This document shows positions 5,067 through 56,747 of a stretch of DNA of 64,000 bases, piece by piece; the first letter of the stretch is position 1; every line of letters starts with the position of its first letter. Both the position numbers and the translations under genes were made by a program. The notes beneath the pieces were generated by a model, which had not been told where the DNA came from, did no database searches, and saw only the letters and a program-made list of their open reading frames with translations. The stretch lies in the IMG/VR virus record IMGVR_UViG_3300039412_000320; one strand, written 5' to 3'. The stretch is from a virus.

Positions 5067-5699
5067 TTAGAGCAGACTTGCTACGCCCAGCCACGGCTCC
5101 TGAGTGCTGGGGACGTGAGTGCAGATGCCGACCGGGATGTAGCCGTTCGTTCCGCCAGTGGTGCCAGAGTGTGCCTTATCGGTGTAAAGTCCAACGTTAC
5201 TCGTGGAATTTCCACCGCAGTACACATAAGCACCGGCGACAAACGCTACGCCAGCCTGCGTGTCATACGACTCTTGGTTGATGTTGCCCTGCCAGAGACC
5301 ACGAACCACTGGGGCCTTCTTGCTGCCCGCAGGTCCAATGGCACCGGAGAATTCACCGGGGCCGTTGATGAGGGCGGCGAACGGAACATTGCCCGCTGCT
5401 ACTGTGGTTGTGGCGTTGGAGGTATACTGCCTGTCACCGGGGTTGAACGGACCCGTTCCAATGATGCCCGCAGTTGCAGTCTCGGTGCTGCCGAGAGTGC
5501 TGTCTACGTTACAAGGAACGATGACCGTTTCCACGTTGGAGGCGTTCTGGGGGTTTCCTGCGATAGCCATGATACGACCTGACAGATACCCTGCGTTAAT
5601 CAGGGTGGTCTGGTCAGTTCCGGGGTCTCCGGTGAGGAGAACGTCGGGCGTAGCATTAACGCTATCGTTTTGACCGTAATAGACTAATTTAAGTCCCAT
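5067..5699 (-). CDS. Gly/Thr-rich putative virion structural protein
   Basis: 210 aa, GT-rich composition; follows hairpin after putative capsid gene. Confidence 0.5.
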   Translation of the reverse strand: MGLKLVYYGQNDSVNATPDVLLTGDPGTDQTTLINAGYLSGRIMAIAGNPQNASNVETVIVPCNVDSTLGSTETATAGIIGTGPFNPGDRQYTSNATTTVAAGNVPFAALINGPGEFSGAIGPAGSKKAPVVRGLWQGNINQESYDTQAGVAFVAGAYVYCGGNSTSNVGLYTDKAHSGTTGGTNGYIPVGICTHVPSTQEPWLGVASLL

Positions 5700-5933: not shown

Positions 5934-6584
5934 ATGCAAATCTACTTGGTGACTAATCTTGTTAACAACAAGATGTACGTCGGACAAACAATTCAGAGCG
6001 TAGAAAGGCGATGGCGGAAACACCTTAGCAACGCTAGGATGGGGCAACAAGACCGTCTCTATCAGGCCATCCGCAAATATGGACCAGAGGCATTTATAGC
6101 AGAGGGCCTAACCCGATGTAATAGCCTGGAACAGATGAACAACCTGGAGAAGCTCTGGATTGCCTTGCTTGGGACTTACGATTACGAATCAGGATACAAT
6201 ATGACGCCTGGAGGAGACGGACGCCCCGTACTTTGCACAGAAGAAACAAGAAAAAAGATAAGTAAAACACGCAAGGGCCAACCTTGCCCGCAATCAACGA
6301 AAGAGGCGGTTGGTAAACGGCATAAGGGGAAACCCAAGCCCATATCTCAACGGCAGAAGATGGCTGCCCACTGGAACACTGAAACTGAACAGGGTAGAAA
6401 CCGACGTTCAAAACAAGCGGATGTTGCCCGCCAAGTTAACGCTATCGAAAATGTCAAACTTAAGGACTACACCTGTCCCACCTGTAAGAAAGAGTTTAAA
6501 CAGGTGACAAAGGGAGCATATGGCGGTCATCGCAAGGCGTGTCTGTTTTGGAATATTCCCTATGAGGGTACTGTTATCGAATAA
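5934..6584 (+). CDS. GIY-YIG homing endonuclease (free-standing, opposite strand to neighbours)
   Basis: MQIYLVTNLVNNKMYVGQT...RWRKH...GYNMTPGGDG motifs; NUMOD3-like C-terminal modules. Confidence 0.85.
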   Translation: MQIYLVTNLVNNKMYVGQTIQSVERRWRKHLSNARMGQQDRLYQAIRKYGPEAFIAEGLTRCNSLEQMNNLEKLWIALLGTYDYESGYNMTPGGDGRPVLCTEETRKKISKTRKGQPCPQSTKEAVGKRHKGKPKPISQRQKMAAHWNTETEQGRNRRSKQADVARQVNAIENVKLKDYTCPTCKKEFKQVTKGAYGGHRKACLFWNIPYEGTVIE

Positions 6585-19213: not shown

Positions 19214-22200
19214 TCAGAGAGTAGTTGTGACAGTAAACGTCACAGAAATATATAACAAACTAAACATAGGTTTAAACGTCACAGTCACGTCCACCGTAGT
19301 GGGGTCGGTCGGGTCCGGCACCACGGATAGGCTCTTGTATCCACTGATGATTTGGTTATTCACCAAGGAGACCAACCGGGAGTTGCAGACCACCTGAATA
19401 TCCGTGGTCAGTCCGGTGACCAACTTCCTGCCGATGAACTGTGCAAGGTCTGCACGGAACTGCTGAGCCACGTAGTCGGTGACTGTGGTGCAGGTCGGTT
19501 CGGAAGTGATGGGGTTGCTCGGGTCGGTGCTCTTGTAGTGACGCACGTTGAGTGCCCCGTTGTTGTTGGTCAAAACTACCAGACCATTCGATGCCATGAG
19601 GTTCATGGTCGTGTCGTCGTACTGCACGAGCAGGCGGCTGAACCCAACCAAGTTCTGATTGGTGAGGGTGGTCGCCACATCGTTGGCGGGGTTGGCATTG
19701 AGTCCGGCAAGAGCGGCTGCCATGAAGCTGCCGTCCACGGCGTACTCAAGCTGCTGCCCGGTCTGGCTGTTGGTGATGAGAACTCCCGCCGCTGGCATAC
19801 CGATGGCAATCATGCGGGCGTTCTTCAAGGCAACGGCGTTGGCACTTGCTTGGTTGGCGGAGGTGGTAGTGCTGTAGCCGACGAAGCCGATGGCCTCGCC
19901 CTTGTTACGAACGGTTGCCTGCGTGATGAGTTGACGGCTCAAGAACTGGTGAACCGTGGTGCTCACGCTGAGAGGAACGATGACATTCGCCTTCTGGTTG
20001 GTTCCGGGCAGGGCGGTTGTCAAGGTCTGGATGGCGCTGATAAAGTCAGCGTCCGAGGCCACATTGAGACCGGCTTGCTTCGGGACCTGAATGACGCCGA
20101 ACTGCTGTGCGCCGTTCTGAGTCATCAACTGAATACCGAGCGACACCCGGTTGATGGTGCTCGGCTGACCGTAGGCGGCGTAAGCGTCGGACGGGTTGGT
20201 ATAAAGGGTGATTGCCATGTCCGCTGCCGTCTTTTCGGTCTGGAAGCTGACGTAGTAGTACTCACCGATGCTCGGCTGATTGGCGGACGGAGCAAAGGTG
20301 TTGATGATGGCGGTATCCCCGGCGTTGGCACCAAAAGTGGTAATGACTTCGGTGTGGAGACCGGCGATGGCTACCAAGTTGTTCGGCTCCGCCGTGCTGA
20401 AAGGAACGTAAACGGTTCCCGTTACACGGGGGGTTTCGCTGCTGACATCGAATACCAGTGTGTCGCCCGGCTGGAAGTTGTACTGGGGCGTCGGGAGACT
20501 GGTGTATCCGTAGTCAAGGGCATCTTGTGGGTTGACGATGGTGAACTTGAGACCGGTGATTTCGTCAACATACGTCTGGTCAAGGTAGCCCACATTGGTG
20601 CCTACTCCACCGGAACCCGAACCCTTGGGGTTGCTGGAGGTAACGAGGTACCGGAGAGCATAAGGCTCCGGGGAACTGGGGTCCACACCGCCAGCGAGGT
20701 TCAGGGGAGCAGCAGTCTGGATGGTCCCTGCCGTCTTAAGGTTGGCAAGTACCGTTCCAAAGGTGGTGCTGATACCGGAACCGGCGAGGTCGATGACTTG
20801 GCTGGTGGTCGTCACACCGTTGAAGGTGATGGCGTTTCCAACCACGCTGACACCGTAGCTGCCCGTGGTATTGAAAGCGACTGTGATGGCATCTCCACCG
20901 GAACCGGGGGTCGTAGAGAAGAAGAGAATTCCCTGTGCCAAGAGGTATGCCTGTGCGCCCGGATTAGCATCCTTGGTGTATTCATCATTTTGGAACGTCA
21001 AGGTGACAGTCTCATCCACTTCACCCGGAGAATCATAGAGGTCCGGGAAAGCGAAAGGCCACACAATATCTGTCTGATTGAAAGCACCGGATTCGGTGAC
21101 GACACTGTGGACGGCATCAAACGATACCACCGGCAGAATACGTCCTACCTCATCCTTCATCTTATAAGTGCCCTGTCCGGGGATGCCGGGGTTGACCACA
21201 GTGAGTGTGTAGGAGTGGTCATGCAGCGTGTTGCGGTAGTAACTGGCATACACGTTGTTTCCAGCGCCGGGAGCGTTGTAGAGAGTAAAGCTCCCCGTGC
21301 TTCCGGTCAGTTGAATGACCCGCTCGGAAGTGCCGGGATAGTAGTTACCCAGAGCTTCCACGGGGTTGGTGCCGACGAAGACCATGATTTTGACTGGGTT
21401 GTCAGTTACCCTGCCGAGACCGCTGCCATCCACGGGGCTATCGGGCAGTGTGAACGTGAGGTTCTTGCCGTTGGCAACTCCCGTGCAAGTGCGGAGGAAC
21501 ACCTTCTCATCCACGAGGGTGGTGAGAATCTGAGTCGGACCGAAGGGAGTAAAGCCCGTGGTGGAACTTCCCACCAAGGTCTGACTGCCTGCGCCCCAGT
21601 TGATGACCGCATTTCCGACTGAATCCAGACCAAGATTGTAGTCCGTATCTTGGACGAAATCGGCCCGGTTAGGTCCCAAACCAACTTCGATGATGGAGGT
21701 GACATTCTGCGCCGGAATGATGTCATAGGTGTTCTGGTAAGTGTTGGTGTAATAGGTGATGGTGACGGTGGACGGGAAGGCCACGGGATTCTTAACCGTG
21801 ACGAGACCTTCCGCACCGTTAACGGCGGAGACCGTTACGGGGGTGCCGTTCACTGTGACTGTAACCTTGCTGGGGTCAGTAGTGACCACCCCACCGCCGC
21901 TACCGTCTACGATGGGAACATGCTCAACCTTGAAAACAGTGTTGGTGTTGGGTCCTGCACCACCCGAGAGGAAAGTCGGGGAGATGGTTGCAGCCGGGAT
22001 GGGAGGAGATTGGATGGCGGGCTGAGTCGCCGTGAGGTAACCAGCGTCCAAGGTGGGAATTCCCGCCTGCACGAGGTTATAAATGTCCTCAAGGGTACGC
22101 TTGCCGCCGCCGACCTCGGCGATGTCGATACTGATATGGTCCGTACCGGCTCCGCTGACCGCCTGTGTGTCCAGCACGCCGATACCCGGAGGCGAAGACA

Positions 22201-22837
22201 GGGTGTCATCGAAGATGGTGAGACTGACAAGGTTGCCTGTAACGCCGGGGAGCTTGGTGCTGATGACCATGGAGTCGCCGCCCGGAGGACTGGCGATGTT
22301 GTTGTAAATCGTCAGTGTGGCAAAGGAGGGAACTTGGTCCGAGTCATCCTCATTGGTAATGAGGGTATCGGTCCGGGCGAAATAGTAACTGATTTCCACG
22401 TTCTGACCCGGAGTGATGAGTTCTTGAGTGGTGAACTCGCCTGTCTGACCCACGAGGGAGATAACCGTGCCGGGCACGCCGTCGATGGTTATCTGAACCT
22501 GACTGGGGTCATTGGTGACCGTTCCCGCTCCAGTTCCTCCACCTGCCAGACCAACTGCCGCCGCTGTGACCACCGGGAAATAGGTGGTATGGAGGGTATT
22601 GGTGATTGCCGTGACTTGGTTGGAGATATTCTCGTTCACCACCTGCGGGCTAGCGACAGAGGACGAACCACGGAAAAGCTCCACGTTGTCCTGTTCAAAG
22701 AACTCCTGTCCTTCACCGATGATGACCGGGATACGGTTGTTCGTAAAGAGGGGCTGACCCGCTCCAGAAATGATAACCGAGGTGTAAACTCCGGGGGGTG
22801 CATAGCTTCCAAAGAGTGCCATAGTAAGTCTCCTCAA
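19214..22837 (-). CDS. very large (1207 aa) repeat-containing virion structural protein (tail fibre / adhesin-like)
   Basis: Recurrent modules DPSQVQITIDGVPGTVISL / DPSKVTVTVNGTPVTVSAV / DNPVKIMVFVGTNPVEAL; Thr/Gly/Val-rich; no enzymatic motifs seen. Confidence 0.65.
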   Translation of the reverse strand: MRRLTMALFGSYAPPGVYTSVIISGAGQPLFTNNRIPVIIGEGQEFFEQDNVELFRGSSSVASPQVVNENISNQVTAITNTLHTTYFPVVTAAAVGLAGGGTGAGTVTNDPSQVQITIDGVPGTVISLVGQTGEFTTQELITPGQNVEISYYFARTDTLITNEDDSDQVPSFATLTIYNNIASPPGGDSMVISTKLPGVTGNLVSLTIFDDTLSSPPGIGVLDTQAVSGAGTDHISIDIAEVGGGKRTLEDIYNLVQAGIPTLDAGYLTATQPAIQSPPIPAATISPTFLSGGAGPNTNTVFKVEHVPIVDGSGGGVVTTDPSKVTVTVNGTPVTVSAVNGAEGLVTVKNPVAFPSTVTITYYTNTYQNTYDIIPAQNVTSIIEVGLGPNRADFVQDTDYNLGLDSVGNAVINWGAGSQTLVGSSTTGFTPFGPTQILTTLVDEKVFLRTCTGVANGKNLTFTLPDSPVDGSGLGRVTDNPVKIMVFVGTNPVEALGNYYPGTSERVIQLTGSTGSFTLYNAPGAGNNVYASYYRNTLHDHSYTLTVVNPGIPGQGTYKMKDEVGRILPVVSFDAVHSVVTESGAFNQTDIVWPFAFPDLYDSPGEVDETVTLTFQNDEYTKDANPGAQAYLLAQGILFFSTTPGSGGDAITVAFNTTGSYGVSVVGNAITFNGVTTTSQVIDLAGSGISTTFGTVLANLKTAGTIQTAAPLNLAGGVDPSSPEPYALRYLVTSSNPKGSGSGGVGTNVGYLDQTYVDEITGLKFTIVNPQDALDYGYTSLPTPQYNFQPGDTLVFDVSSETPRVTGTVYVPFSTAEPNNLVAIAGLHTEVITTFGANAGDTAIINTFAPSANQPSIGEYYYVSFQTEKTAADMAITLYTNPSDAYAAYGQPSTINRVSLGIQLMTQNGAQQFGVIQVPKQAGLNVASDADFISAIQTLTTALPGTNQKANVIVPLSVSTTVHQFLSRQLITQATVRNKGEAIGFVGYSTTTSANQASANAVALKNARMIAIGMPAAGVLITNSQTGQQLEYAVDGSFMAAALAGLNANPANDVATTLTNQNLVGFSRLLVQYDDTTMNLMASNGLVVLTNNNGALNVRHYKSTDPSNPITSEPTCTTVTDYVAQQFRADLAQFIGRKLVTGLTTDIQVVCNSRLVSLVNNQIISGYKSLSVVPDPTDPTTVDVTVTFKPMFSLLYISVTFTVTTTL

Positions 22838-24784: not shown

Positions 24785-24826
24785 AAAAACAACTTTCTCG
24801 GTATTTATATGAGGGGGTTGTGTATG

Positions 24827-25531
24827 TTCATCTATCTGATTGTCAACCACGAGACTGGGAAGTACTATGTCGGTCAGCATAAGGGGAACAACCTAAAAAA
24901 ATACCTACAGCAGAAGTTTCATCACGCTCAAAAGGGAATCTCCAGTCGTTCCCGTCTTTATAACTCCATGCGTAAGCATCCCCTTCCCTCTTCTTGGTCC
25001 ATACACGCCCTCCGGGCCGACATCCAAACAAAATCCGAATTAGACGAGACGGAGCGGGACTTCATCAAATTTCTTAGGGCAACTGACCCTGAATATGGCT
25101 ACAACATATGCCGGAGAGGGGAGGGGTTCACGGGGCCGCACGGACCTGCGGCGAGAGCCAAGGTGACCGAAGCTCTGAAACAAAGATGGGCGCAACCGAA
25201 CTTCCGGGAACACTGGAGTGAGATTATGAAAGGGCATCCTACATCACAAGAGACTATCGACAAGATTAAGGCTGCCCGTGTCTTGCAGGACGAAGCACCA
25301 CGGGCCGAAGGCTGTAGGAAGTATGCGGCAGAGCACCCCAAAGAAATGTCAGCACGCCTGTCCCACGAGGCCCACATACTGGGGGGCAGGGCTGGAACAC
25401 GGGAAGCCAAGCAAAGGGCCGCCAAAATCAGCATTGAAAGAAACAGCCGTAGGAAAGCCCAACATGTTCGCTGGCATGTCAACCGAGGGTTGATTAACCC
25501 AGAATGTTTACTTTGTAAACCATCTTTGTAG
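24827..25531 (+). CDS. GIY-YIG homing endonuclease (MFIYLIVNH paralog family, copy 1)
   Basis: MFIYLIVNHETGKYYVGQHKGNNLKKYLQQK...GYNICRRGEGFTGP; start moved to Met shared with paralogs at 27676 and 60615. Confidence 0.85.
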   Translation, partial: FIYLIVNHETGKYYVGQHKGNNLKKYLQQKFHHAQKGISSRSRLYNSMRKHPLPSSWSIHALRADIQTKSELDETERDFIKFLRATDPEYGYNICRRGEGFTGPHGPAARAKVTEALKQRWAQPNFREHWSEIMKGHPTSQETIDKIKAARVLQDEAPRAEGCRKYAAEHPKEMSARLSHEAHILGGRAGTREAKQRAAKISIERNSRRKAQHVRWHVNRGLINPECLLCKPSL

Positions 25532-27675: not shown

Positions 27676-28554
27676 ATGTTCATTTATCTTATTGTCAATC
27701 ACGAAACCGGGAAGTACTACGTTGGACAGCACAAAGGGGATAACCTTAAAGCCTACTTGCAGCGTAAATTTTCCGCCGCAAAACACAATGAGGGTAAGGG
27801 GGGTTCTTATTTATTCGCCTCTATGCGTAAACATCCCCTTTCCTCCTCTTGGTCCATTCATGCCCTTCGTTCGGATATCCAAACAAAAGAAGAGCTTAAC
27901 GAAACCGAGAGGGATTTTATCAAATTTCTGCGGTCACAAGACCCCGAGTATGGGTACAACATTTGTAAGGGTGGGGAAGGACATACAGGACCGTTATCTC
28001 AAGAAACTCGTCAAAAAATATCTACTCACCACAAACAAATGTGGACTAACCCTGAAATAAAACAACATTTCTTAACACAAATGATAGTGGGGCATAGGAA
28101 TAGTTCATCGTGGCATACCCCGGAAGGTCTTGAAAAAATTAAACAGGCAATTGCTGGATTAAAACGCACGCCTGAGACATGTAATAAAATACGGATTAAA
28201 CGTCTGCTACAGCCAGACCCCCGGCGTGGGAAACATCATTCAGAGAAAACGAAAAAACGTATTAGCGAGGTCAAAAAAGGTACCCCAAGTTCCTTCCGTG
28301 GAAAACACCATAGTGATGAGTCAAAAGAGAAAAACCGAAAAGCCCATTTAATAAATCTGCAAGGACAAGATTTTGGAAACGTAATTCCCATGTCTTTAGT
28401 AGCGTCTAATCCCCAATCCAAGTGGGCGGTTAAATGCATTGTTTGCGGGTCCGAGGGAATAGTGAGGGGGGATAGAATCAGAAGTGGTGATTCCGCTTTC
28501 ATGAGAGCACACTCTGGGATACATGAAGTCTCGAATAGGGGGATACAAAACTAA
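27676..28554 (+). CDS. GIY-YIG homing endonuclease (MFIYLIVNH paralog family, copy 2)
   Basis: MFIYLIVNHETGKYYVGQHKGDNLKAYLQRK...GYNICKGGEGHTGP; NUMOD3-like C-terminal modules; stop overlaps next start (TAATG). Confidence 0.85.
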   Translation: MFIYLIVNHETGKYYVGQHKGDNLKAYLQRKFSAAKHNEGKGGSYLFASMRKHPLSSSWSIHALRSDIQTKEELNETERDFIKFLRSQDPEYGYNICKGGEGHTGPLSQETRQKISTHHKQMWTNPEIKQHFLTQMIVGHRNSSSWHTPEGLEKIKQAIAGLKRTPETCNKIRIKRLLQPDPRRGKHHSEKTKKRISEVKKGTPSSFRGKHHSDESKEKNRKAHLINLQGQDFGNVIPMSLVASNPQSKWAVKCIVCGSEGIVRGDRIRSGDSAFMRAHSGIHEVSNRGIQN

Positions 28555-32674: not shown

Positions 32675-33691
32675 TCACTTGTTAAAGCCCGGATGCGAGA
32701 CGCCTTCACTGGACTTCGGCTTAATCTTCATTCCCTTTAGCCGTTCGATGGTTTCGTCAAATGGCCGGTCAAGGCATTGCGTAGCGACCACGAACTCCCG
32801 CAGGTGGGCAATGCTGAGGTCGTTGGTTTCCTTCGCCCAACCGGCTATTTGCTCTTTCGTGAATTTCTCTCCGATGGCACGGGTCAGATACATGCGTCGG
32901 GCCGACTCGTCCGGCATAGGGACCTTTATCACTTCGTCAAAGCGGCTCGGGCGGTTGACGATACGAGGCCCGAGGTTCTCAGGGTAGTTCGTCGTGGCGA
33001 TATGCACCACGTTGTTTACCTGATGCTCACCGTCCAGAAAGCTGAGCAAATCGTGTTCGCCCCGGTGCTCAATCACTTCCTCAATATCTTCCATGATGAC
33101 GATAAGCGGGCGGTCCGGCTCTATCCGGCGAAGGACCCGCAGAGCGTTGATTGCCATGCCCGGATGCTGGCAGATGATGACAATACCGCCCCGCTTGATG
33201 AGCTTTTCAATAAGCAGAGCGACCGTCGCCGTCTTACCCGACCCGGCGTTGCCCCACAGGAGGATACCCCGCTTGAACAGGATGCCCATAGCGGAGAACT
33301 TCTCCTTGGAGTCCCAAAAGGTTTCGATGGAGTTGATGACCTGTTGAGTGACCGTCTCCCCAAGGTCATAAAGGGTGTCAGTCATTGGCTTGGACTTGAG
33401 GAAGTATATCCTCCCGTCGCTGTCCTGAGAGAGGTTGTAGACCCCCGGAGGAAGCGTATCAGTGGTCTTGGAGGAGGCGGAAAAGCTACCGTTAGGATGC
33501 ACCTGCCACTGGCAGACGTTCATGGTGATGACATCATCGGATTCGTCGCTCCCCGTGGGACCTTGGGCGCTAGTCTTATTTCCACGGGGAACACCTTGGT
33601 CTGAATCCCTTGCTGCCTTATCGTTCATCCTACCTTGCAGTTCCGCCCAATCGTCGGATGCTGACATATTTTCTCCCTCACATTTCGGCAT
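32675..33691 (-). CDS. AAA+ ATPase
   Basis: Walker A GNAGSGKTAT, Walker B IVIMEDIEE, sensor-2-like NRPSRFD; start overlaps NadV stop (TAATG). Confidence 0.75.
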   Translation of the reverse strand: MPKCEGENMSASDDWAELQGRMNDKAARDSDQGVPRGNKTSAQGPTGSDESDDVITMNVCQWQVHPNGSFSASSKTTDTLPPGVYNLSQDSDGRIYFLKSKPMTDTLYDLGETVTQQVINSIETFWDSKEKFSAMGILFKRGILLWGNAGSGKTATVALLIEKLIKRGGIVIICQHPGMAINALRVLRRIEPDRPLIVIMEDIEEVIEHRGEHDLLSFLDGEHQVNNVVHIATTNYPENLGPRIVNRPSRFDEVIKVPMPDESARRMYLTRAIGEKFTKEQIAGWAKETNDLSIAHLREFVVATQCLDRPFDETIERLKGMKIKPKSSEGVSHPGFNK

Positions 33692-35121
33692 TAGTCATCT
33701 TCCCGGTTGTAGCGGTCATAACCGCTGGAGATTTCCCGGACTTCGTCAAGGGTCTGGTGCCGCTTAATTACCCCATCTTCAAATACTGTCTCCAGCTTAT
33801 CTTCGTGGCCTGTGGCGAGCTTCATATCGTATTCCTGCTCCACAGTCTCGAATTCCCCATCCGACAGTTCCAAGAGGGAGAACCTGCCGCCGATGGATGC
33901 CTTGGACGGGTCGGTCTTAACCGTCTTGTGAACATCCTCCCACCGACCGTCCCGGCAGATAGCGGAGCATTTGATGGCGAACCGCATGGTATCACGGTTC
34001 TGCTGTTGAAGCAAAGCACCGCCCATGCCGTAGCCCCAGTTGTCCATGGACCACCCGGCCCGTGTCAGGTGACTGTTGATGCGGCAGATGTTCTGGTAGT
34101 TGACTCCGTCGCCTTGGATGACCCGGACCTGCTTGGGCAGGACCTTCCAACCCTTAGCGTTTGTCTCGAAGCCAAACTTCTCGGCAATGGCGTTGAACAT
34201 GTCTTCAATGACGACACAGGGGTCACCGCTATCCGGGCGCAGGACCACCACGCCGTCACGCCGCAGAATTGTTTCCCGCAACTTGCCGCCGAAGATGTTA
34301 GCAACGGCGTTGTGGGTGTCGTAGCTGTCTACCACGAGCGCCACGAGGCCAGCCGGGACCTTCTCCAGCATGTTGGCATAAGCCTCAGCCTCGGCATCCT
34401 CACCCCACGAAGTAACGGTGGAGTGCTCCATCGCCGGGATGGAGAAACCGGCGCAGGGGCAATCGTAGAACTGCTCCAGAAGCGAAAGAGCCGCCATGGT
34501 GTCGGTGCCCATGAAATTGACAAGGTGGGCAGCCCCGCCGATAGCAGCGGTCTCCTGAGAGCTAACGCCCCTGTATCCGAAGTCGTGCAACTTGAAACCG
34601 AGTCCAGCCGGGTCACCGGTACGCACAAGGTCCCTGCCGATGGTCTGCTTGATTTCAAATGACAGGGTCCCAACCGTGATGGGATACCACACTTGCAGGA
34701 GTTGGGTTTCCGCCCAGTTGGTCAGCCACGGGAATTCCTTGTCGGTGTTTTCGATGGTCATCAACACGTTCTTGATGGGAACCACGGTACCCTCTTTAAC
34801 CGCACGAATGCGCAGGGGCAACTTGCCGCCATGCTTTTCCAGCAACCGCATCCAGCCGTTGAAGTTGAATACTTCATCGTTGCCGAAATGCCGGTGACAA
34901 ATGCGGGCAGCTTCGTGGACATCTTTCTTGGTGAACACCTTGCCCTCGAAGTATGCGGCGAGGATGTATTGCAGCCCGGAGAACAATGTGTGCTGCCAGA
35001 AACCACCCCGGCTCATGAGGTAGCTGTACACATATTCCGCATCCGAAGGATACTGAAACCAGTGCGACAGCTTGTAGCTGTCTGTCCTTAAAATGGGGTT
35101 AAGCTTGAGTGCTTTGGGCAT
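33691..35121 (-). CDS. nadV: nicotinamide phosphoribosyltransferase (NAMPT/NadV family)
   Basis: MPKALKLNPILRTDSYKLSHWFQYP matches NAMPT N-terminus (NILLATDSYKVTHYKQYP); about 475 aa; start set to that Met. Confidence 0.85.
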   Translation of the reverse strand: MPKALKLNPILRTDSYKLSHWFQYPSDAEYVYSYLMSRGGFWQHTLFSGLQYILAAYFEGKVFTKKDVHEAARICHRHFGNDEVFNFNGWMRLLEKHGGKLPLRIRAVKEGTVVPIKNVLMTIENTDKEFPWLTNWAETQLLQVWYPITVGTLSFEIKQTIGRDLVRTGDPAGLGFKLHDFGYRGVSSQETAAIGGAAHLVNFMGTDTMAALSLLEQFYDCPCAGFSIPAMEHSTVTSWGEDAEAEAYANMLEKVPAGLVALVVDSYDTHNAVANIFGGKLRETILRRDGVVVLRPDSGDPCVVIEDMFNAIAEKFGFETNAKGWKVLPKQVRVIQGDGVNYQNICRINSHLTRAGWSMDNWGYGMGGALLQQQNRDTMRFAIKCSAICRDGRWEDVHKTVKTDPSKASIGGRFSLLELSDGEFETVEQEYDMKLATGHEDKLETVFEDGVIKRHQTLDEVREISSGYDRYNREDD

Positions 35122-36040
35122 GTGTGTTCTCCTTTTTGGTAAGATGTTGTTGCAGCATCTCGAAGAGAGGACGATGCTCCTTCTCAAAATCCTCCACAGT
35201 CAATTTGCTTATGTCAAACCACTGCGCTTGGGAAAGGTCATCGCTGCCCTTCCCGCCCATAGTCATACTGTACGCCATGAAGAAGACGGTCTTGAAGCCC
35301 TCAGATGGCTCCGAGCGCCAGCGCCAGCTATCGACCTTGCGGGAGCCGACATATTCAAGGTCTTGGATGTCCAGACCCGTCTCCTCGAACGCTTCCTTCT
35401 TGGCATCAGCCTCGAAGGTTGGCGTGCTGAATATTGCGTGCCCGCCCGGAAAACGCCAGAACGTGTCATCTGGCTTCTTGCCGAGGAGAAGCATCAAACC
35501 CTTCTCCGCCTTGTGCAGGATAGCAATGTCCACCACGGTGACAAGCCGGGGCCACAGTTGGTTCATGGCGTAGATGACACCCGCCCGGAAAAATGGCGAC
35601 TCCATGACATTGTTGGTCAGCTTGGCACGGATATCCGTGCTGGTAAGGGACGCCGGGACCTCTATCTCCAGTTCCTTGACCTTGTGCTTCCCGTGATAGA
35701 AGGGAGCGAATGAGTCCCTACTACCGTATAATACCACTTCGTGGGGAACTTCTCCCACGGCTTCGGAGATGCGCTCATCCAAACTGTCTGACCACTGTTC
35801 GTCGGTCTTGCAGTCCCGCAGGGGCAATACGGTGAACTCGGGGAACTTCGCCTGAATCATTTTCTTCCGAGTCTCGAAGTCTAACGGGTCGTGCCGGGTC
35901 GGACCGACCTTATTGCAGCCAAGGAATACGATAACCCGCTGGTGACGCCCACGCACAATACGAAAAATTTCAAGGTGCCCGTCATGGAGTTCGTGAACTT
36001 GGAACCGGCCAACTAAAACACCAAATGATGGTTTGGTCAT
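35099..36040 (-). CDS. natV: bifunctional NMN adenylyltransferase / Nudix hydrolase (NadM/NatV-like)
   Basis: GRFQVHELHDGH matches (H/T)xGH nucleotidyltransferase motif; C-terminal Nudix box GLMLLLGKKPDDTFWRFPGGHA...EADAKKEAFEETGLDI. Confidence 0.8.
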   Translation of the reverse strand: MTKPSFGVLVGRFQVHELHDGHLEIFRIVRGRHQRVIVFLGCNKVGPTRHDPLDFETRKKMIQAKFPEFTVLPLRDCKTDEQWSDSLDERISEAVGEVPHEVVLYGSRDSFAPFYHGKHKVKELEIEVPASLTSTDIRAKLTNNVMESPFFRAGVIYAMNQLWPRLVTVVDIAILHKAEKGLMLLLGKKPDDTFWRFPGGHAIFSTPTFEADAKKEAFEETGLDIQDLEYVGSRKVDSWRWRSEPSEGFKTVFFMAYSMTMGGKGSDDLSQAQWFDISKLTVEDFEKEHRPLFEMLQQHLTKKENTHAQSTQA

Positions 36041-40369: not shown

Positions 40370-41068
40370 TTAATGCTTGCCACAGACACAGGGTAAACCA
40401 CGGTTTATGTGCTGATGCTTGCAACGTGCCTTAAGATTCCCAGTATTGGCAACCGCTATTTTATCTCGCTGGGCTTTCGGCATCACATATCCTGTATGCG
40501 CTAAGGACATATTTCTCCTTATTTCGTCAGTATACACTCTTTCCCTTGCCATCTTAGCTATCCGCTGGCGCTCAGACTCGGGCATACCTTGCTCTATCTT
40601 TATCTTGGATAGGAGCCGTTTCTGTGCTTCAGACATTGGGCCTTTCTTCTTGCCCCGCTGAATATCCCCAATGAGCTTTCTGGTCTCCTTAGAATGATGC
40701 CAACCACCTGATGCTATCCGGCTAGTAATGGTTTTCCTACGCCGGTCCTCAGTCCACTTAGTACCCAAACAACTTCCCGCCTTCGGAAGAGTGTTATAGC
40801 CGTTTTTGTAACTACCATAAAAATCTAGCCAATGCTGCTCTCGGGCTATGAGGGTCTCCCGGACAGGCTCGCATTGTTCAATAACTACAAATTCCCACGC
40901 CTGTTTTCCGTACTTTCTCCACGCTCGGAGAAATTTCTGACCACTGTGGATTCCCCTGCTAAGCTCCTTAAGGTGGGTTGCTTTTCGTCTTTCAATGTGG
41001 ACAGAGCTTCCGATGTACCACTTTTCTGTTATCGTATTTCTCCACCCGTAGACGCCGCTAGTCTTCAT
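40370..41068 (-). CDS. GIY-YIG homing endonuclease (paralog of 43974..44606)
   Basis: GVYGWRNTITEKWYIGSS...R...GYNTLPKAG; C-terminus CKHQHINRGLPCVCGKH shared with paralog. Confidence 0.85.
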   Translation of the reverse strand: MKTSGVYGWRNTITEKWYIGSSVHIERRKATHLKELSRGIHSGQKFLRAWRKYGKQAWEFVVIEQCEPVRETLIAREQHWLDFYGSYKNGYNTLPKAGSCLGTKWTEDRRRKTITSRIASGGWHHSKETRKLIGDIQRGKKKGPMSEAQKRLLSKIKIEQGMPESERQRIAKMARERVYTDEIRRNMSLAHTGYVMPKAQRDKIAVANTGNLKARCKHQHINRGLPCVCGKH

Positions 41069-41107
41069 TCTTCTTCTACCTCTGTATTAGGAGTAGAAAG
41101 TTGATAT

Positions 41108-43909
41108 TTACAAAACTCCGATTTCAGAAAGGAACCTAGAGGGTCGAACGGAGATTGTATTGGGTCCACGGAATTCCAATGCATGAACACAAATGTTCAA
41201 AACATCCTTTGCCCTCGTACAGGCCACGTATAGAAGCCTCCGCTCCTCCTCCCACTCGGTTGGAGTAGTACAAAAACGGTGGGGAATGCTGCCCTCAGTG
41301 ACATTGGTGACATAGACCCGACGCCACTCTAACCCCTTGGCGCTGTGGATGGTACTGATGGTTACGGCCCCCTCTTCATCATCTTCATCGGTGGGGCGCT
41401 CCATGGCAAGCTGAAACACAAGGTCTTCGGCAGATAAACCGGTATCATTGACCAGACCTTCCACCAAAGAAACAAACCGGTCAATGTTCTCACACTTCGT
41501 CCGTGCCTTGCTGGCCTCCCGTGCATACTTCTGATTGATGTAATCCTTGTACCGAAAGAGGTTAATGATTTCCTCTAAAGCGGCCATTGGAGAAGAAAGG
41601 CGGCTCTTCACTTCCCCCATTGCCCGAGAGAACAAGTCAAGTTTATCATTGGTACCGCACGCCGCCAGCAGGTCGCCGCCGTGGTCGGCCTCCGCCCGGA
41701 CTCGTATCTTTTCGATGGCTACATCCCCGACTCCCCGCTTGGGAGTGCTGATTGCCCGACTAAAAGCGGGGTAATCTTTGGGGTTGACCGCCAGACGGAA
41801 ATAAGAAAGCAGGTCTTTGATTTCCTCGGTTTGAAGTAATCCCCTGCCGCCCCGGACGATATAAGGGATACGCAGGCGAACGAGCGCACCTTCTAGGTCC
41901 CGGACCTGGATGGCGCTACGCACGAGGATGGCATTATCCTTGTAGTCAATGTGCTTTCCCTTAACGCCATTGTCGTGTTGTATCTCCCGAGCGATGATGT
42001 TGGCGATTTCTCCCGGCGTGCTAGAACGAATGAGCCGGGCGGTGCCGGTCTCTACTTCCTTGTCCCCCTCCATTCCCCGGAACACTTGCATCTTGAGGGG
42101 AATGACCTCGGTCATCGTGGCATTGATGCGGTTGGATAACCGGATGATGGCGGGAAGGCTCCGGTGGTTGCGAGAGATACGATACAGGTCCGGTACATGC
42201 CCACGCCAGCCCTCACTAAACTCCTTGAGCAACCGTGGCTCTGCCCCCTGAAAGGCGTAGATAGAATTCCCAACCGGTACTTCATCAGCTACATATCTAT
42301 GGTCTATCTCTACGTCAAGGGAGTACACTAACCCGGAGTAATTCTCGGAGATGACTGAAGTTATCGGAGAACTACCCCTGTCTTCCAGATGAGGCAATTC
42401 CATAACTTCAGGAATAAGGTTGGCTGCGACTATCTTGAAATATGGACTCCGTCCCCAATTCTGCCTGTTCTTTTCAGGCTTACTCCATATGGGGTATTCA
42501 AATAGAAGACCTTGGTCCTCCAGACACCTATACCCGCCACTGGGGTCAGACGCAGCAAATATCCGCTTCACCTGTTCGATGCTTTTTTCGGATAGTCCGT
42601 AATTTTCAAATTCGGTATGAGGTATGCCGTACCTAAGAGAAAATATCTGTTCTTGGGTCTCTGCTTCAATGTGGTCATCTGTAATTTTTAGCAACCACAT
42701 CTTGTCGCATTTCTGAACCGCCGCCCTTCGGGCGAACAAGCTGACATTGCCAGACCCTTTGAGCGTAACCCTACCGACCCTAAATCCCCAGTCCTGTCGC
42801 CACATAAGATAGACTGCAAAAACTCTTCTCGTGGTCAAGGATGGAGAAAATCTAGCCCAGAACCAGTGATTGGGGGTAACTCTGGTTGTATTTCCCTTAT
42901 AGGATACAGAAAGCATCCTTCCATTATACATACGGCTAGAAGTCTTTATCTTTCTTCCATCTAAAACCACAAACTGCTTCTTCTGCCCCCTTCTACAAAC
43001 CCAAAACGGGCTCCAAGACACGACTCTGTTGCCATCACGAAGCTCGCTTATATCCTTTAACGTGACTTTTGCACCTGAAAGTTTGTATGCTCGCTTCTCA
43101 AGCACTCTTACCTTTGTTCCCGCAGGCTGACATTGGGCCAAATCTCCGACCATATACAGGTTTTGATTAGAGTCGGGTAGCAAGTTATTGACAAAAACAT
43201 GCTGGGTCGGGCTGAGGTCTTGACTTTCATCGACCAAAACATGCCAAAACCGAGATTGGAGCTTCAGTTTCCATGCTGACTGCTCTGCTGCTCGTTTATT
43301 TACCAGTAACACCATGTCGTCAAAATCCACCATCCGGCACTTTTTCTTCTCTTCCTCGAAGCTGTACCAAATCTTGGTCTCCCAGTCTTCCAGAGCGTGA
43401 TATCCGGCGTGGTGTTCAAGGGCCTCCTCATGCACTTCATCGGTGTAGTCGGCGGAGAATCCTATCCCCCGTGCCCGATGGTAGCCGAGCTTCTCAAGGA
43501 ACCGATAGGGATTGTGTTCCTCCCCCGGTTCGGGCTTGCTCCGTTCGATGAGCTTCTTTACCATTTGAGATTGGTCATAGTCGTCCATCGGTGTGACCCT
43601 TCCCTCGAATCCGAAACCCTCGGGGTCTTTACGGATGGCATTCAAGGCAAGGCTGTGGATGGTACTGATGTGCGGTCTCTCGGTGGTAAGGTTATCGTCA
43701 GAGCCACAAACACGTCTCTCCAGTTCGGATGCCGCCTTCGAGGTAAAGGTTATGGCCGCAATCCGAAAAGGAGGCACCCCTTGAGTCATCAACCATCGCA
43801 CTCTCTCTGTCAAGGTAGCGGTCTTACCAGAACCGGCACCAGCTATCAAACAAGCGGGACGCCCTATTGGATGAGCCACGGCTCTGATTTGCTCGTCAGT
43901 AAGTTGCAC
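41108..43909 (-). CDS. UvrD/PcrA-family SF1 DNA helicase interrupted by an intein in helicase motif III
   Basis: Walker A AGAGSGKTAT; DESQD; motif III split as GDLAQ|C...intein...N|SIYAFQGA; extein about 644 aa. Confidence 0.85.
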   Translation of the reverse strand: MQLTDEQIRAVAHPIGRPACLIAGAGSGKTATLTERVRWLMTQGVPPFRIAAITFTSKAASELERRVCGSDDNLTTERPHISTIHSLALNAIRKDPEGFGFEGRVTPMDDYDQSQMVKKLIERSKPEPGEEHNPYRFLEKLGYHRARGIGFSADYTDEVHEEALEHHAGYHALEDWETKIWYSFEEEKKKCRMVDFDDMVLLVNKRAAEQSAWKLKLQSRFWHVLVDESQDLSPTQHVFVNNLLPDSNQNLYMVGDLAQCQPAGTKVRVLEKRAYKLSGAKVTLKDISELRDGNRVVSWSPFWVCRRGQKKQFVVLDGRKIKTSSRMYNGRMLSVSYKGNTTRVTPNHWFWARFSPSLTTRRVFAVYLMWRQDWGFRVGRVTLKGSGNVSLFARRAAVQKCDKMWLLKITDDHIEAETQEQIFSLRYGIPHTEFENYGLSEKSIEQVKRIFAASDPSGGYRCLEDQGLLFEYPIWSKPEKNRQNWGRSPYFKIVAANLIPEVMELPHLEDRGSSPITSVISENYSGLVYSLDVEIDHRYVADEVPVGNSIYAFQGAEPRLLKEFSEGWRGHVPDLYRISRNHRSLPAIIRLSNRINATMTEVIPLKMQVFRGMEGDKEVETGTARLIRSSTPGEIANIIAREIQHDNGVKGKHIDYKDNAILVRSAIQVRDLEGALVRLRIPYIVRGGRGLLQTEEIKDLLSYFRLAVNPKDYPAFSRAISTPKRGVGDVAIEKIRVRAEADHGGDLLAACGTNDKLDLFSRAMGEVKSRLSSPMAALEEIINLFRYKDYINQKYAREASKARTKCENIDRFVSLVEGLVNDTGLSAEDLVFQLAMERPTDEDDEEGAVTISTIHSAKGLEWRRVYVTNVTEGSIPHRFCTTPTEWEEERRLLYVACTRAKDVLNICVHALEFRGPNTISVRPSRFLSEIGVL
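42266..43132 (-). mobile_element. intein (289 aa) inside UvrD-like helicase
   Basis: Begins with Cys after GDLAQ; block B TPNHWFWA (TxxH); C-terminal VYSLDVEIDHRYVADEVPVGN followed by Ser matches VYDLxVExxHNFVANGxxVHN|S; no clear LAGLIDADG or HNH motif. Confidence 0.7.
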
Positions 43910-43973
43910 GGAACCTCACTTTGTTCGTAAACGTGACCTAAATGACTACCGAAATTATACTTAGGAGGAGCCT

Positions 43974-44606
43974 ATGAGTAAAATGTGCGGCGTCTATTCA
44001 ATCACTAATACTGAAAATGGAAAAAAGTACATCGGGTCAAGCGTCAACATCTACCATCGGTGGAGACTGCACCGCTGGAGGCTTGATAGGGGGGAACACC
44101 ATTCCCCTCACCTTCAAAGTAGTTGGAAAAAACGAGGACCGAAAGCATTCAAGTTTGAGGTCCTGCTTGAATGCGACCGAGATTCACTTATAAAATACGA
44201 ACAGGAATTCATAGACCGTTTTAATACCACCCAAAACGGGTACAACATCTGTCCTGTAGCGGGCAATTGTCTTGGGTTATCCCCATCTCCTGAGACCCGT
44301 GCCAAATTAGCAAAAGCTTGGAAAGGAAGGAAACATACCAAGGCCAGCAGGCGGTTGATGTCCTTGGCTACAAGAGGTGTGCCCAAATCTTATGCTCACA
44401 AGGCGGCGTTACGGGGACCCCGTGGTAAGCTGGAAAATATCCGTTTATCTAAACTGGGGGATAAGAATCCCAATTTTGGCAAGCCCCGTTCAGAGGAGAC
44501 AAAACGAAAGATAGCTGAGGCACAAAGAGGTATTCCACGGAAGGGAAATTGTCTTCGATGGAACATCAACCGTGGGAAGTCCTGCACCTGTGGAAAGCAT
44601 CTTTAG
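43974..44606 (+). CDS. GIY-YIG homing endonuclease (paralog of 40370..41068, inverted orientation)
   Basis: CGVYSITNTENGKKYIGSS...HRW...GYNICPVAG; C-terminus CLRWNINRGKSCTCGKHL. Confidence 0.85.
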   Translation: MSKMCGVYSITNTENGKKYIGSSVNIYHRWRLHRWRLDRGEHHSPHLQSSWKKRGPKAFKFEVLLECDRDSLIKYEQEFIDRFNTTQNGYNICPVAGNCLGLSPSPETRAKLAKAWKGRKHTKASRRLMSLATRGVPKSYAHKAALRGPRGKLENIRLSKLGDKNPNFGKPRSEETKRKIAEAQRGIPRKGNCLRWNINRGKSCTCGKHL

Positions 44607-54748: not shown

Positions 54749-54826
54749 TGGTTCCAGAGGGAGGACTCGAACCTCCAGTCTCAACGGGTTCAAAGCCCGG
54801 CGTGTTACCAATTACACTACTCTGGA
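54749..54826 (-). tRNA. tRNA gene; apparent anticodon UUG (Gln?), assignment tentative
   Basis: Hand-folded cloverleaf: acceptor TCCAGAG/CTCTGGA, D-arm GTGT-AATTGGTA-ACAC, anticodon loop CTTTGAA, T-arm GGAGG-TTCGAGT-CCTCC, CCA encoded; one mismatch at top of anticodon stem; 7-nt variable loop. Confidence 0.6.
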
Positions 54827-54833
54827 ATAAAGC

Positions 54834-54921
54834 TGGATGGGAAGGAGGGACTCGAACCCTCACAAGCATTTACTGTCTCCTGATTCAAAGTCAGGCGTGT
54901 TACCAATTACACCACTTCCCA
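54834..54921 (-). tRNA. tRNA-like gene with 17-nt variable arm; identical D-arm and anticodon loop to preceding tRNA (apparent UUG)
   Basis: Acceptor TGGGAAG/CTTCCCA, D-arm GTGT-AATTGGTA-ACAC, anticodon stem CCTGA/TCAGG loop CTTTGAA, variable AGACAGTAAATGCTTGT, T-arm GAGGG-TTCGAGT-CCCTC, CCA encoded. Confidence 0.55.
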
Positions 54922-54960
54922 ATCTATGTCAAACGCATCAAAAATGGTGCATTTGGAAAC

Positions 54961-55046
54961 TGGAGCCGGGTGCGGGATTTTAACCCACGTGGGATTTCTC
55001 CGCCTGCTTACAGGACAGGTGCCATCGTACACTAGGCTAACCCGGC
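54961..55046 (-). tRNA. tRNA-like gene, type II (14-nt variable arm, 3-bp D-stem); anticodon unresolved by hand
   Basis: Acceptor GCCGGGT/ACCCGGC, T-arm GTGGG-TTAAAAT-CCCGC, CCA encoded; anticodon stem CCTGT/GCAGG gives loop CCTGTAA with C at position 33, which is atypical. Confidence 0.45.
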
Positions 55047-55498
55047 TAACGACCGATACCACCACTTCTACATGCTCTACAAAATCTCTGGACTCCCGAG
55101 GGTTGCCACTTATTAAGATTGAACAATCCCTTACCCAGAAACTTTTTATGTCCATAGCACCATGCTTCTCCTTCTGGTGCTGTGTTTACATGATTAATTC
55201 TAGCTCTTTCTAGTTGTTCTCTTAACTTGGGAATATTCCTTCGTGCCGCCCTAATGTTGCATGACTTGTGAGAAAAGGCAATGTTACCTAAATCCCAAAA
55301 CAGGTCAGGCGACATATCCAGCCAAGGTTTCTTGTGTTCAATAGAGAACTGAGCGGCGTTCTCAATCTTTTTGCCACATTGAAAGCAGCTATCCAAATTA
55401 AGTTGCTTCGCCATATGGAAAAGTAGTTGCTTCAACAACCTTCCACTTGCTGTTCCAAAAGGCATCCCCAACTGATTTCTTACCTTATAGTGGTCCAT
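55046..55498 (-). CDS. HNH endonuclease
   Basis: CFQCGKKIENAAQFSIEHKKPW...GNIAFSHKSCN; stop abuts 5' end of tRNA at 55046. Confidence 0.7.
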   Translation of the reverse strand: MDHYKVRNQLGMPFGTASGRLLKQLLFHMAKQLNLDSCFQCGKKIENAAQFSIEHKKPWLDMSPDLFWDLGNIAFSHKSCNIRAARRNIPKLREQLERARINHVNTAPEGEAWCYGHKKFLGKGLFNLNKWQPSGVQRFCRACRSGGIGR

Positions 55499-55581
55499 AC
55501 TCCACCCCCAATAAAGGTGGAGATAGTTGAGAATTTGGGAATTACAGTTGTCTCCATTCTAAAAAAATACTCAATAAAACT

Positions 55582-55657
55582 TGGAGCCCAAGGTCAGAAT
55601 CGAACTGACGACCCCTCCCTTACCAAGGGAATGCTCTACCACTGAGCTACGAGGGCT
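55582..55657 (-). tRNA. tRNA gene, apparent anticodon GGU (Thr)
   Basis: D-arm GCTC-AGTGGTA-GAGC, anticodon arm TTCCC-TTGGTAA-GGGAG, T-arm GTCAG-TTCGATT-CTGAC; acceptor stem shows two mismatches in my hand fold. Confidence 0.55.
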
Positions 55658-55662
55658 AAAAA

Positions 55663-55738
55663 TGGAGCCGATGAGCGGCCCTGACCCGCTGACCTCTCGC
55701 TTACGAGGCGAGTGCTCTGCCACCTGAGCTACATCGGC
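55663..55738 (-). tRNA. tRNA gene, apparent anticodon CGU (Thr)
   Basis: Perfect acceptor GCCGATG/CATCGGC, D-arm GCTC-AGGTGGCA-GAGC, anticodon arm CTCGC-CTCGTAA-GCGAG; T-loop GTCAGGG non-canonical; CCA encoded. Confidence 0.6.
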
Positions 55739-55788
55739 ATAGGGACGCCCCGAGGGCGACCCCAACTCCTCCCACTATGGTGGGTGAG

Positions 55789-56631
55789 CTAAAAACTTGG
55801 TCCAGTCGGGAAGAGTCGAACTTCCGTTGTGCGATTATCAGTCGCAAGTTCTACCGTTGAACTAAGACTGGTCTTCAAATTTCCGTGTCTTACAAGCGCA
55901 CGGAACTTCCCGGAACAAGACTGGTTGCAAAACTTCAACTTTCCTTCTTCGTGAGGACGGTCTTTTAGCTCTTGATGGCAGAATCCGCACTCTGCTAGTT
56001 TACACGCCTCGGCTGTCATTCCACCATGTCGCTCCAAAAGTGCCTTACAGCGACGATAGTTTAAGGCATTGCGATTCTTCCCAAGAGACTCCAAGGCTGC
56101 GCCAATGCTACGAGTCTCAAGTAGAGCTACTAAAAGCCGCTCATCAGTTATTTCGTAATCGCCTTTCCTATGACCCCTTCCCCTTCCTTTACCACAGTAT
56201 GTCGGCGTCTGGCTGTGGCAATTAGGGCATAGACCTCGAAGGTTCTCACGCTGATTATTTTGCGTATCCCCGTCAGCATGGTCAACCTGCAACGTCAGAG
56301 GAGTTCCCATCCACTCCTTAATTCCACAACGAGAGCAAGCCTTGTCTTGCTCAACGATAACCCGTTTCTTCTTGCTCTCAACGGTCAAGGAATCAAAATC
56401 CGCTTCCAACAACTGTCTAAGCTTGGTTTGGCTTGAGCGCCGACCCGCTCTTTCCCTGGCCTCCTGACTTACCTTATGACCATAAAGCTTAAGGGATATT
56501 TTTTTGTTCTTCTCCTTCCGATTCTGTGTTGAAACAAAATTTCTAGCACAAAACTCGGAACAGAACCGCCCTGACCCATACGACCCATCATGCTCTTTCT
56601 TGCACTTCTCGTTCTCACATTGAACCACCAT
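55789..56631 (-). CDS. HNH homing endonuclease (ORF reads through tRNA 55808..55881 before reaching a stop)
   Basis: CSRCG...LQVDHADGDTQNNQRENLRGLCPNCHSQ; last 30 codons are encoded by the tRNA sequence. Confidence 0.7.
   Translation of the reverse strand: MVVQCENEKCKKEHDGSYGSGRFCSEFCARNFVSTQNRKEKNKKISLKLYGHKVSQEARERAGRRSSQTKLRQLLEADFDSLTVESKKKRVIVEQDKACSRCGIKEWMGTPLTLQVDHADGDTQNNQRENLRGLCPNCHSQTPTYCGKGRGRGHRKGDYEITDERLLVALLETRSIGAALESLGKNRNALNYRRCKALLERHGGMTAEACKLAECGFCHQELKDRPHEEGKLKFCNQSCSGKFRALVRHGNLKTSLSSTVELATDNRTTEVRLFPTGPSF
55808..55881 (-). tRNA. tRNA gene, apparent anticodon GAU (Ile)
   Basis: D-arm GTTC-AACGGTA-GAAC, anticodon arm TGCGA-CTGATAA-TCGCA, T-arm GGAAG-TTCGACT-CTTCC, CCA encoded; overlaps 3' end of HNH ORF 55789..56631. 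Confidence 0.6.
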
Positions 56632-56672
56632 TATAGTATGCTCCTATAATAGTGGTTCAAAAGTCCAATCTT

Positions 56673-56747
56673 TGGTGCGCCCGGAAGGACTCAAACCTTC
56701 GTGACTCCCCTATCGAGGGAGCATATTCGTCGCTATATGACAGGCGC
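56673..56747 (-). tRNA. tRNA-like gene, atypical (D-loop lacks GG; anticodon loop TCGATAG with C33); apparent anticodon GAU
   Basis: Acceptor GCGCCTG/CGGGCGC, T-arm GAAGG-TTTGAGT-CCTTC, CCA encoded; may be degenerate. Confidence 0.4.

Follow-up and report, generated by a model that had tools for sequence, protein, structure and literature searches.

Class-1 intein with a nested domain of GIY-YIG-like predicted fold in motif III of a phage UvrD/PcrA-like helicase

Inteins interrupting UvrD helicases are known from bacteria, 16 of them having been counted in a 2016 survey (PMC4760082), as well as from phages, the genome announcement of CampHawk stating that an intein disrupts its UvrD helicase, as is the case in SPO1 (PMC3868849). 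The respective records annotate a helicase intein in CampHawk (KF669649) and a 275-amino-acid (aa) intein in gp34.33 of the Bacillus phage SPO1 (NC_011421). The element dealt with here is a 289-aa insert in a helicase gene of the window, i.e. of the whole 64,000-nucleotide stretch of viral DNA taken from the IMG/VR record IMGVR_UViG_3300039412_000320. The insert is very probably a class-1 intein in motif III of a phage UvrD/PcrA-like helicase; the complete interpretation, which adds a nested endonuclease domain resembling the GIY-YIG nucleases, is given a probability of about 0.85.

In a tblastn comparison with phage records, the alignments to SPO1 gp34.33, to CampHawk and to their relatives cover the whole precursor (100%), the insert included; the whole-precursor identity to the SPO1/CampHawk helicase is ~29%. 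The SPO1 site is read as FLVGDDDQ / CQPAGEQ...YLMQKGEDFRVGWC...VYSLDVDVHELYIVEGLVTHN / SMYSFRGA, with the copy ending in LVTHN. The SPO1/CampHawk intein shares with that of the window the insertion point within motif III (GDxxQ / S-x-Y-x-F-x-G), the CQPAG start, the central domain of the pattern YLM...FRVG...R...W...E, the VYSLDV...N end, a similar size (275–285 aa vs 289 aa in the window) and a large myovirus as the host. The differences concern the last two residues (His-Asn in SPO1, Gly-Asn in the window), the host lineage—the nearest relative of the window being an acidobacterial jumbo phage, and the best match of its helicase belonging to a 309-kb phage of an acidobacterium—and the surroundings, the SPO1 helicase having no flanking GIY-YIG genes, unlike that of the window. 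Since both the family and the site are the same, the window intein adds a new member, from a different phage lineage, to an intein allele already known, and the type of its nested domain is the only potentially new element.

The LAGLIDADG class-1 inteins PI-SceI, PI-PfuI and PI-PkoII resemble the window intein in having the Hint domain split by an endonuclease domain, in Cys1, the TxxH motif and the C-terminal Asn followed by a nucleophile, and in homing as the expected way of spread; in contrast to them, the nested domain of the window intein exhibits neither LAGLIDADG motifs nor a match to the Pfam LAGLIDADG families, and its predicted fold resembles GIY-YIG. The only sources of GIY-YIG homing enzymes reported in PMC1564403 and PMC2677866 are group I introns and free-standing genes, and both the 2006 GIY-YIG survey (PMC1564403) and Dassa et al. 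2009 (PMC2677866) stated that such endonucleases were not known in inteins. A 2025 survey of actinobacteriophages likewise covers only LAGLIDADG, HNH, Vsr-like and EndoVII-like intein endonucleases (10.1101/2025.01.02.630785). A literature search for inteins together with GIY-YIG or T5orf172 revealed no description of such a domain, its coverage being incomplete and the result therefore no proof of novelty. A related arrangement is that of the "fractured genes" (Dassa et al. 2009, PMC2677866), where a free-standing GIY-YIG or Vsr-like gene lies between the halves of a split intein. These resemble the window in the association of an intein with a GIY-YIG-type nuclease in phage DNA-metabolism genes; in the window, however, neither the gene nor the intein is split, the nuclease-like domain forms part of the reading frame, and the I-TevI-like genes are located beyond the helicase gene.

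The helicase precursor, the 933-codon reading frame of which is open throughout, reads ...NLYMVGDLAQ / CQPAGTKVRV...(289 aa)...HRYVADEVPVGN / SIYAFQGAEP. An earlier sequence-only reading had described a 933-aa helicase with motif III interrupted at its centre, and this is borne out by the list of open reading frames (ORFs), by Pfam and by the residues themselves. The Pfam domains UvrD-helicase (aa 3–259; 2.5e-44) and UvrD_C (aa 577–908; 3.1e-48) leave the insert between them unmatched, and the precursor matches PHROG 1967 "DNA helicase" at 9e-98. Splicing in silico yields a 644-aa product with an intact GDLAQSIYAFQGA, the residues 4–641 of which align to the Geobacillus PcrA (1pjr) with E 2e-63 and a gapless junction ("ymvGDlaQSIYafqGAe" in the window vs "caVGDadQSIYrwRGAd" in PcrA), while the spliced extein matches the structures of PcrA, Rep and UvrD over the full length (E 2e-63 to 4e-56). 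According to the alignment to PcrA, the helicase motifs are contiguous and intact once the insert is removed. It should be noted that the NCBIfam equivalog cut-offs are far above the scores of this helicase, which is thus a phage paralogue rather than UvrD, PcrA or Rep proper.

The comparison with orthologues leads to the same point. The closest phage orthologue, gp207 of the Tunturiibacter phage Tunturi_5, has no intein and aligns gaplessly at 53% identity ("NLFCCGDISQSIYSFNGSSP"), the seamless motif III expected from the sequence-only reading being thereby confirmed with both this protein and PcrA. The orthologous helicase from the metagenomic contig L001 (944 aa after restoring one base) also has motif III uninterrupted (GDISQSIFSFNG) and carries a 305-aa homologue of the insert elsewhere (38% identity, E 2e-64; ...FEQEKT / CQPPGT...LIVGN / CTNTIDFDD), at a site that is empty in the window helicase (EEEKKK-CRMVDFDD). 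As an observation on that contig itself, the frame of its helicase/intein gene shifts by one base within a CCTAAAAAGGGGG run (A5G5) at ~5221..5233, which breaks the gene into two ORFs, and one added A restores the 944-aa ORF; with regard to the 2x coverage given in the contig name, this is probably an assembly error and not a pseudogene. A conserved non-intein domain of the helicase is rejected in view of the presence or absence of the insert among orthologues and by the switching of its site.

With regard to the fold, the profile of the insert family matches the solved intein MJ0781 at 7.6e-10 and, in addition, PhoCDC21-1, Spl DnaX, Npu and Ssp DnaB, PI-PkoII, Pho RadA and Mtu RecA. The Pfam family Intein_splicing (PF14890) matches 21 of the 22 aligned members, at best with 1.7e-08, the window copy being the one exception. 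The AlphaFold2 model of the intein has a predicted local distance difference test (pLDDT) value of 89.8 and a predicted template modelling score (pTM) of 0.87, and each of the 50 best matches found for it by Foldseek in the PDB is an intein, a bacterial intein-like (BIL) domain or a hedgehog autoprocessing domain, the template modelling scores (TM-scores) reaching 0.6–0.74 relative to mini-inteins in alignments that span across the central insertion. Since the insert is absent from Tunturi_5 gp207 and differently placed in L001, and since both the family profile and Foldseek lead to Hint folds, it is considered to be an intein.

The residue set of a class-1 intein—Cys1, Thr86, His89, Asn289 and Ser+1—is present, the blocks F and G being contained in VYSLDVEIDHRYVADEVPVGN (intein residues 269–289), so that the N-terminal Cys, the TPNH block B and the C-terminal block followed by Ser, all pointed out in the sequence-only reading, are found at the appropriate positions. 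All the residues invariant in the 22-member alignment, i.e. Cys1, Pro3, Gly71, His89, Tyr280 and Asn289, are kept in the window copy, and Thr86 and His278 are at least 90% conserved in the same alignment.

The family to which the intein belongs is large. A HMMER scan covering 1.84 billion cluster representatives, with family clusters taken at 50% identity, found 1521 representatives at E≤1e-3 and 824 at E≤1e-10. From the best 150, 52 complete copies were parsed, selected for the Cys start and for Asn followed by Ser, Cys or Thr; among these, the +1 residue is Ser in 26 and Cys in 26. About 30 of the copies are located in motif III (GDxxQ/[SC][ILMV]), seven in motif II (DExQDxxx/CxW) and four in ParB_N-N6/N4 DNA methyltransferases (HWQxEP/C), the remainder occupying other helicase sites; four proteins of the parsed set contain two copies each. 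The intein family is therefore mobile across at least six insertion sites in two host protein families, and its presence in methyltransferases as well as in helicases means that it has crossed between unrelated host proteins. The methyltransferases concerned are P0079 and P0147 (also P0107 and P0128), interrupted at HWQxEP/C...HN/CFY. Two or three copies of the family occur in the helicases P0021 (2433 aa), P0059, P0080, P0090, P0127, P0002, P0004, P0051 and P0096, the first of which has three matched stretches together with matches to Hint_2 and Intein_splicing. As to detection, the Intein_splicing matches stay under the gathering score of 35.8 bits in five of seven host proteins. A word-indexed protein search with the insert gave a single relative, the L001 helicase fragment; the same type of search with the central-domain alignment found no relative, and megablast of the 9-kb locus against phage records returned no match.

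Concerning the central domain of the intein, neither motifs nor hidden Markov model (HMM) matches of the LAGLIDADG or HNH type were found between blocks B and F, in agreement with the sequence-only reading, and the only antisense ORFs inside the intein, sought as a hidden out-of-frame or antisense endonuclease, are 60 and 64 aa long. The model of the domain (pLDDT 88.8) predicts a three-stranded sheet with flanking helices in the order beta-beta-alpha-beta-alpha, as in the GIY-YIG superfamily, and the best structural matches are GIY-YIG nucleases, namely the I-TevI catalytic domain, the UvrC N-domain and SLX1, which have the same order of secondary structures. In BFVD, the first three matches represent the same domain within a viral methyltransferase and helicases (E ~1e-9), whereas the later ones are mostly GIY-YIG homing endonucleases (E ~1e-2, probability 0.8–0.95). 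The conservation, counted over 174 copies whose clusters share no more than 50% identity, is at least 98% for seven residues: Tyr108 (99%), Met110 (98%), Arg118 (99%), Gly120 (99%), Arg136 (100%), Trp146 (100%) and Glu161 (99%). The earlier suggestion that the endonuclease domain might be either degenerate or of an unusual type can thus be retained in its second part only, such conservation speaking against degeneration.

As in the GIY-YIG nucleases, a Tyr is located on strand 1, a Gly on strand 2, an Arg on helix 1 and a Glu on helix 2; in contrast to them, the central domain lies in-frame within an intein, has no detectable sequence similarity to them, and has the second Tyr changed to Arg and the Asn missing. 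The correspondence comes from a non-significant but co-linear hhalign alignment, in which Tyr108 falls on the tyrosine of GIY, Arg-Val-Gly on YIG and Glu161 on the catalytic Glu; of the GIY-YIG catalytic set read from it, Tyr108, Gly120, Arg136 and Glu161 are at least 99% conserved, the position of the second Tyr is occupied by Arg118 and there is no conserved Asn. The domain is therefore designated here only as GIY-YIG-like in its predicted fold, the homology being unproven. The balance of the evidence favours a homing nuclease; an evolutionary relationship to GIY-YIG enzymes stands at slightly below even odds, and the strongest form of the proposal, that the central domain of the family is an active, highly diverged GIY-YIG-type homing endonuclease—the first in-frame one of the GIY-YIG class described in inteins—is possible, although somewhat less likely than not.

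Several observations weigh against the interpretation given here. The window insert alone has no match at E≤10 in Pfam, NCBIfam, PHROGs or PDB sequences, so that its assignment to the Hint superfamily depends on the family profile and the predicted structure. The penultimate residue (block G) is Gly288 instead of the usual His. The guanine-plus-cytosine (G+C) content of the intein, 46.0% in comparison with 52–54% in the exteins, differs by an amount that falls inside the 1-kb scatter of the window (42–61%), so that the lower values of the intein and of the three neighbouring endonuclease genes (47.8, 47.2 and 40.0%) are suggestive only. For the central domain, there was no Pfam match in any of the 22 members scanned and no match among PDB sequences, and hhalign of its profile, built from 22 or 175 sequences, against the window GIY-YIG genes and I-TevI gave a probability of only ~0.1. 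Finally, residue 140 (42713..42715), four residues after Arg136, is Gln in the window copy and Glu in 163 of the 174 copies (94%), a replacement that, from the sequence, may weaken the nuclease of this copy.

The lack of a direct HMM match and the missing penultimate His could be taken for signs of a lineage-specific accessory domain, which would not splice but be retained in the mature helicase, and Gly288 and Gln140, both deviating from the family majority, for those of a decayed intein that no longer splices and leaves a dead helicase gene. A penultimate His is, however, common but not obligatory, inteins without it being known to splice, and the 52 parsed copies have at this position Gly (21), His (12), Lys (6), Leu (5), Cys (4), Ala (3) and Arg (1). 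The decayed intein is very improbable with regard to the 933 open codons, the intact helicase motifs and the retention of every invariant family residue. The accessory domain is still less credible, because the insert splits a universally contiguous motif, is absent from the closest orthologues and has the predicted Hint fold, and because other sites as well as methyltransferases harbour the same module, in every case with Cys at its start and with Asn followed by Ser or Cys at its end. The low hhalign probability, together with RVG in the place of YIG and the absence of a conserved Asn, raises a different alternative: the central domain might be a nuclease unrelated to GIY-YIG, its beta-beta-alpha-beta-alpha core having arisen by convergence in a separate, so far undescribed endonuclease family. 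This is unlikely, though far from negligible, the co-linearity of the alignment described above pointing the other way.

Under the preferred interpretation of a class-1 intein with a nested endonuclease domain, splicing may be envisaged from the residues read in the sequence and from the chemistry established for inteins in general. After translation, the two Hint lobes (intein aa 1–100 and 232–289) would come together, Cys1 would form a thioester with the aid of Thr86 and His89, and the N-extein would be passed on to Ser+1; cyclisation of Asn289 would then free the intein, after which the exteins would be joined by a regular peptide bond through an acyl shift, yielding the 644-aa helicase. 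The central domain (aa 96–232), most likely a site-specific endonuclease of GIY-YIG-like fold, would presumably act in homing by cutting the intein-less helicase alleles of co-infecting phages, the repair copying the intein in. The neighbouring GIY-YIG and HNH genes are separate free-standing homing endonuclease genes. The positions of all these elements are summarized in Table 1.

Table 1 Features of the helicase locus and of its intein; positions refer to the window
Feature	Position	Strand	Details
GIY-YIG homing endonuclease gene, 232 aa	40370..41068	-	39 bp downstream of the helicase stop, same strand; PHROG 314 1e-25; I-TevI profile
Helicase precursor gene, UvrD/PcrA/Rep-like superfamily 1 (SF1)	41108..43909	-	933 aa, GTG start, stop 41108..41110; ORF list, Pfam, PHROG
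C-extein, aa 549–933	41111..42265	-	Opens with Ser+1; SIYAFQGA is the second half of motif III
Intein, 289 aa, precursor aa 260–548	42266..43132	-	Between Gln259 and Ser549; Cys1, Thr86-x-x-His89, Asp273, His278, Gly288, Asn289
Hint C-terminal lobe, intein aa 232–289, blocks F and G	42266..42439	-	Profile match to C-lobes of MJ0781, PhoCDC21, Spl DnaX and Npu DnaB; model
Central inserted domain, intein aa 96–232, putative homing endonuclease; core followed by a small helical region	42437..42847	-	
Predicted beta-beta-alpha-beta-alpha core, intein aa 105–170	42623..42820	-	Tyr108, Arg118, Gly120, Arg136, Gln140, Trp146, Glu161
Hint N-terminal lobe, intein aa 1–100	42833..43132	-	Contains block A (Cys1) and block B; AlphaFold2 beta strands through aa 95; profile match to MJ0781 intein N-lobe
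Block B (TPNH, intein residues 86–89)	42866..42877	-	
N-extein, aa 1–259	43133..43909	-	Its terminal GDLAQ forms the first half of motif III
GIY-YIG homing endonuclease gene, 210 aa	43974..44606	+	Divergent from the helicase start, 64-bp spacer; PHROG 314 2e-41
HNH endonuclease gene, 150 aa	44603..45055	-	Pfam HNH_5 2.6e-07; 18 PHROG HNH families

Both GIY-YIG ORFs flanking the helicase gene match the Pfam families GIY-YIG and NUMOD3 as well as PHROG 314 "homing endonuclease", contain the invariant GIY-YIG catalytic residues (Tyr, Tyr, Arg/Lys, Glu, Asn), and the profile of the window GIY-YIG genes matches I-TevI at 1e-18. The sequence-only reading regarded them as closely related genes in opposite orientation, both ending in NINRG..C.CGKH and marking a hot spot for the insertion of homing endonuclease genes. 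Their GIY-YIG identity and orientation hold, but the two proteins are paralogues only 33% identical to each other (E 3e-29), and the end common to both is INRGxxCxCGKH, the exact termini being ...HINRGLPCVCGKH (40370..41068) and ...NINRGKSCTCGKHL (43974..44606); this motif, with an upstream Cys, looks like a zinc-binding one. The HNH gene, absent from that description, is convergent with the GIY-YIG gene at 43974..44606 and overlaps it by 4 bp. The hot spot is borne out only in part: the flanking genes are real I-TevI-like ones, but the intein-bearing relatives SPO1, L001 and L004 have no GIY-YIG neighbours at the helicase, and such genes are scattered throughout the window. Four further GIY-YIG ORFs are found at 2342..2971(-), 5934..6584(+), 24809..25531(+) and 27676..28554(+), making at least six in the 64-kb window, and the genome is thus generally rich in them. 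Those starting at 2342, 24809 and 27676 form a closer subgroup beginning with MFIYLIVNHETGKYYVGQ.

The existence of intein-bearing relatives without these neighbours indicates that the flanking genes are independent elements and not parts of the intein. They resemble the T4 seg/mob and the ICP1 homing endonuclease genes in their intergenic position beside a conserved DNA-metabolism gene, the clustering of such genes beside essential phage genes being a pattern described for ICP1 (PMC10448857). Beside the helicase of L001 or Tunturi_5, homologues of the flanking window ORFs are lacking, so that an insertion is not demonstrable by synteny. Rfam detects tRNAs only, and no group I intron in the vicinity of the endonuclease genes.

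It is with these genes in view that a spread of the intein in trans should be considered. In such "collaborative homing" the intein would splice, its central domain would be no working nuclease—being DNA-binding, structural or inactivated—and the cutting would be left to the flanking endonucleases. The three free-standing endonuclease genes adjoining the helicase gene are in line with it, as are Gln140 in the place of the prevailing Glu and the lack of significant sequence similarity of the central domain to any nuclease family. It is nevertheless improbable, since SPO1, L001 and L004 carry the intein without flanking GIY-YIG genes, the distribution of the latter extends over the whole window, and the near-invariance of seven residues in diverged copies argues for an activity of the central domain itself.

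The remaining content identifies the window as phage DNA, with a tail sheath domain, a nicotinamide phosphoribosyltransferase and a cluster of seven tRNAs. The first is found in a 1207-aa ORF at 19214..22837(-), in which the similarity to the tail sheath family PHROG 2839 is restricted to the last ~330 residues, whereas the long stretch N-terminal to them is unmatched. The nicotinamide phosphoribosyltransferase gene (33691..35187(-); PHROG 448, 7e-149) has a counterpart in Tunturi_5, located there a few kb from the helicase. The tRNA cluster (54749..56747(-)) comprises, according to ARAGORN, two genes for Gln, three for Thr and two for Ile, six of the seven being reported by Rfam as well; the identities assigned to two of them may be wrong because of their unusual length (88 and 86 nt).

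For annotation, the appropriate entry for this helicase is a mature protein of 644 aa together with an intein. Since the curated models miss the window copy and catch its relatives mostly below the threshold, many such genes are labelled only as long helicases. What is added to the known SPO1/CampHawk allele is thus a very large, site-hopping family, largely missed by curated models, with a nested domain that resembles a GIY-YIG-type nuclease. Having moved among at least six sites in two host protein families, it offers a good system for studying the change of intein targets. If the nested domain is truly an enzyme of the GIY-YIG type, the family would constitute a large and easily testable new class of intein endonucleases beside the LAGLIDADG, HNH, Vsr-like and EndoVII-like ones.

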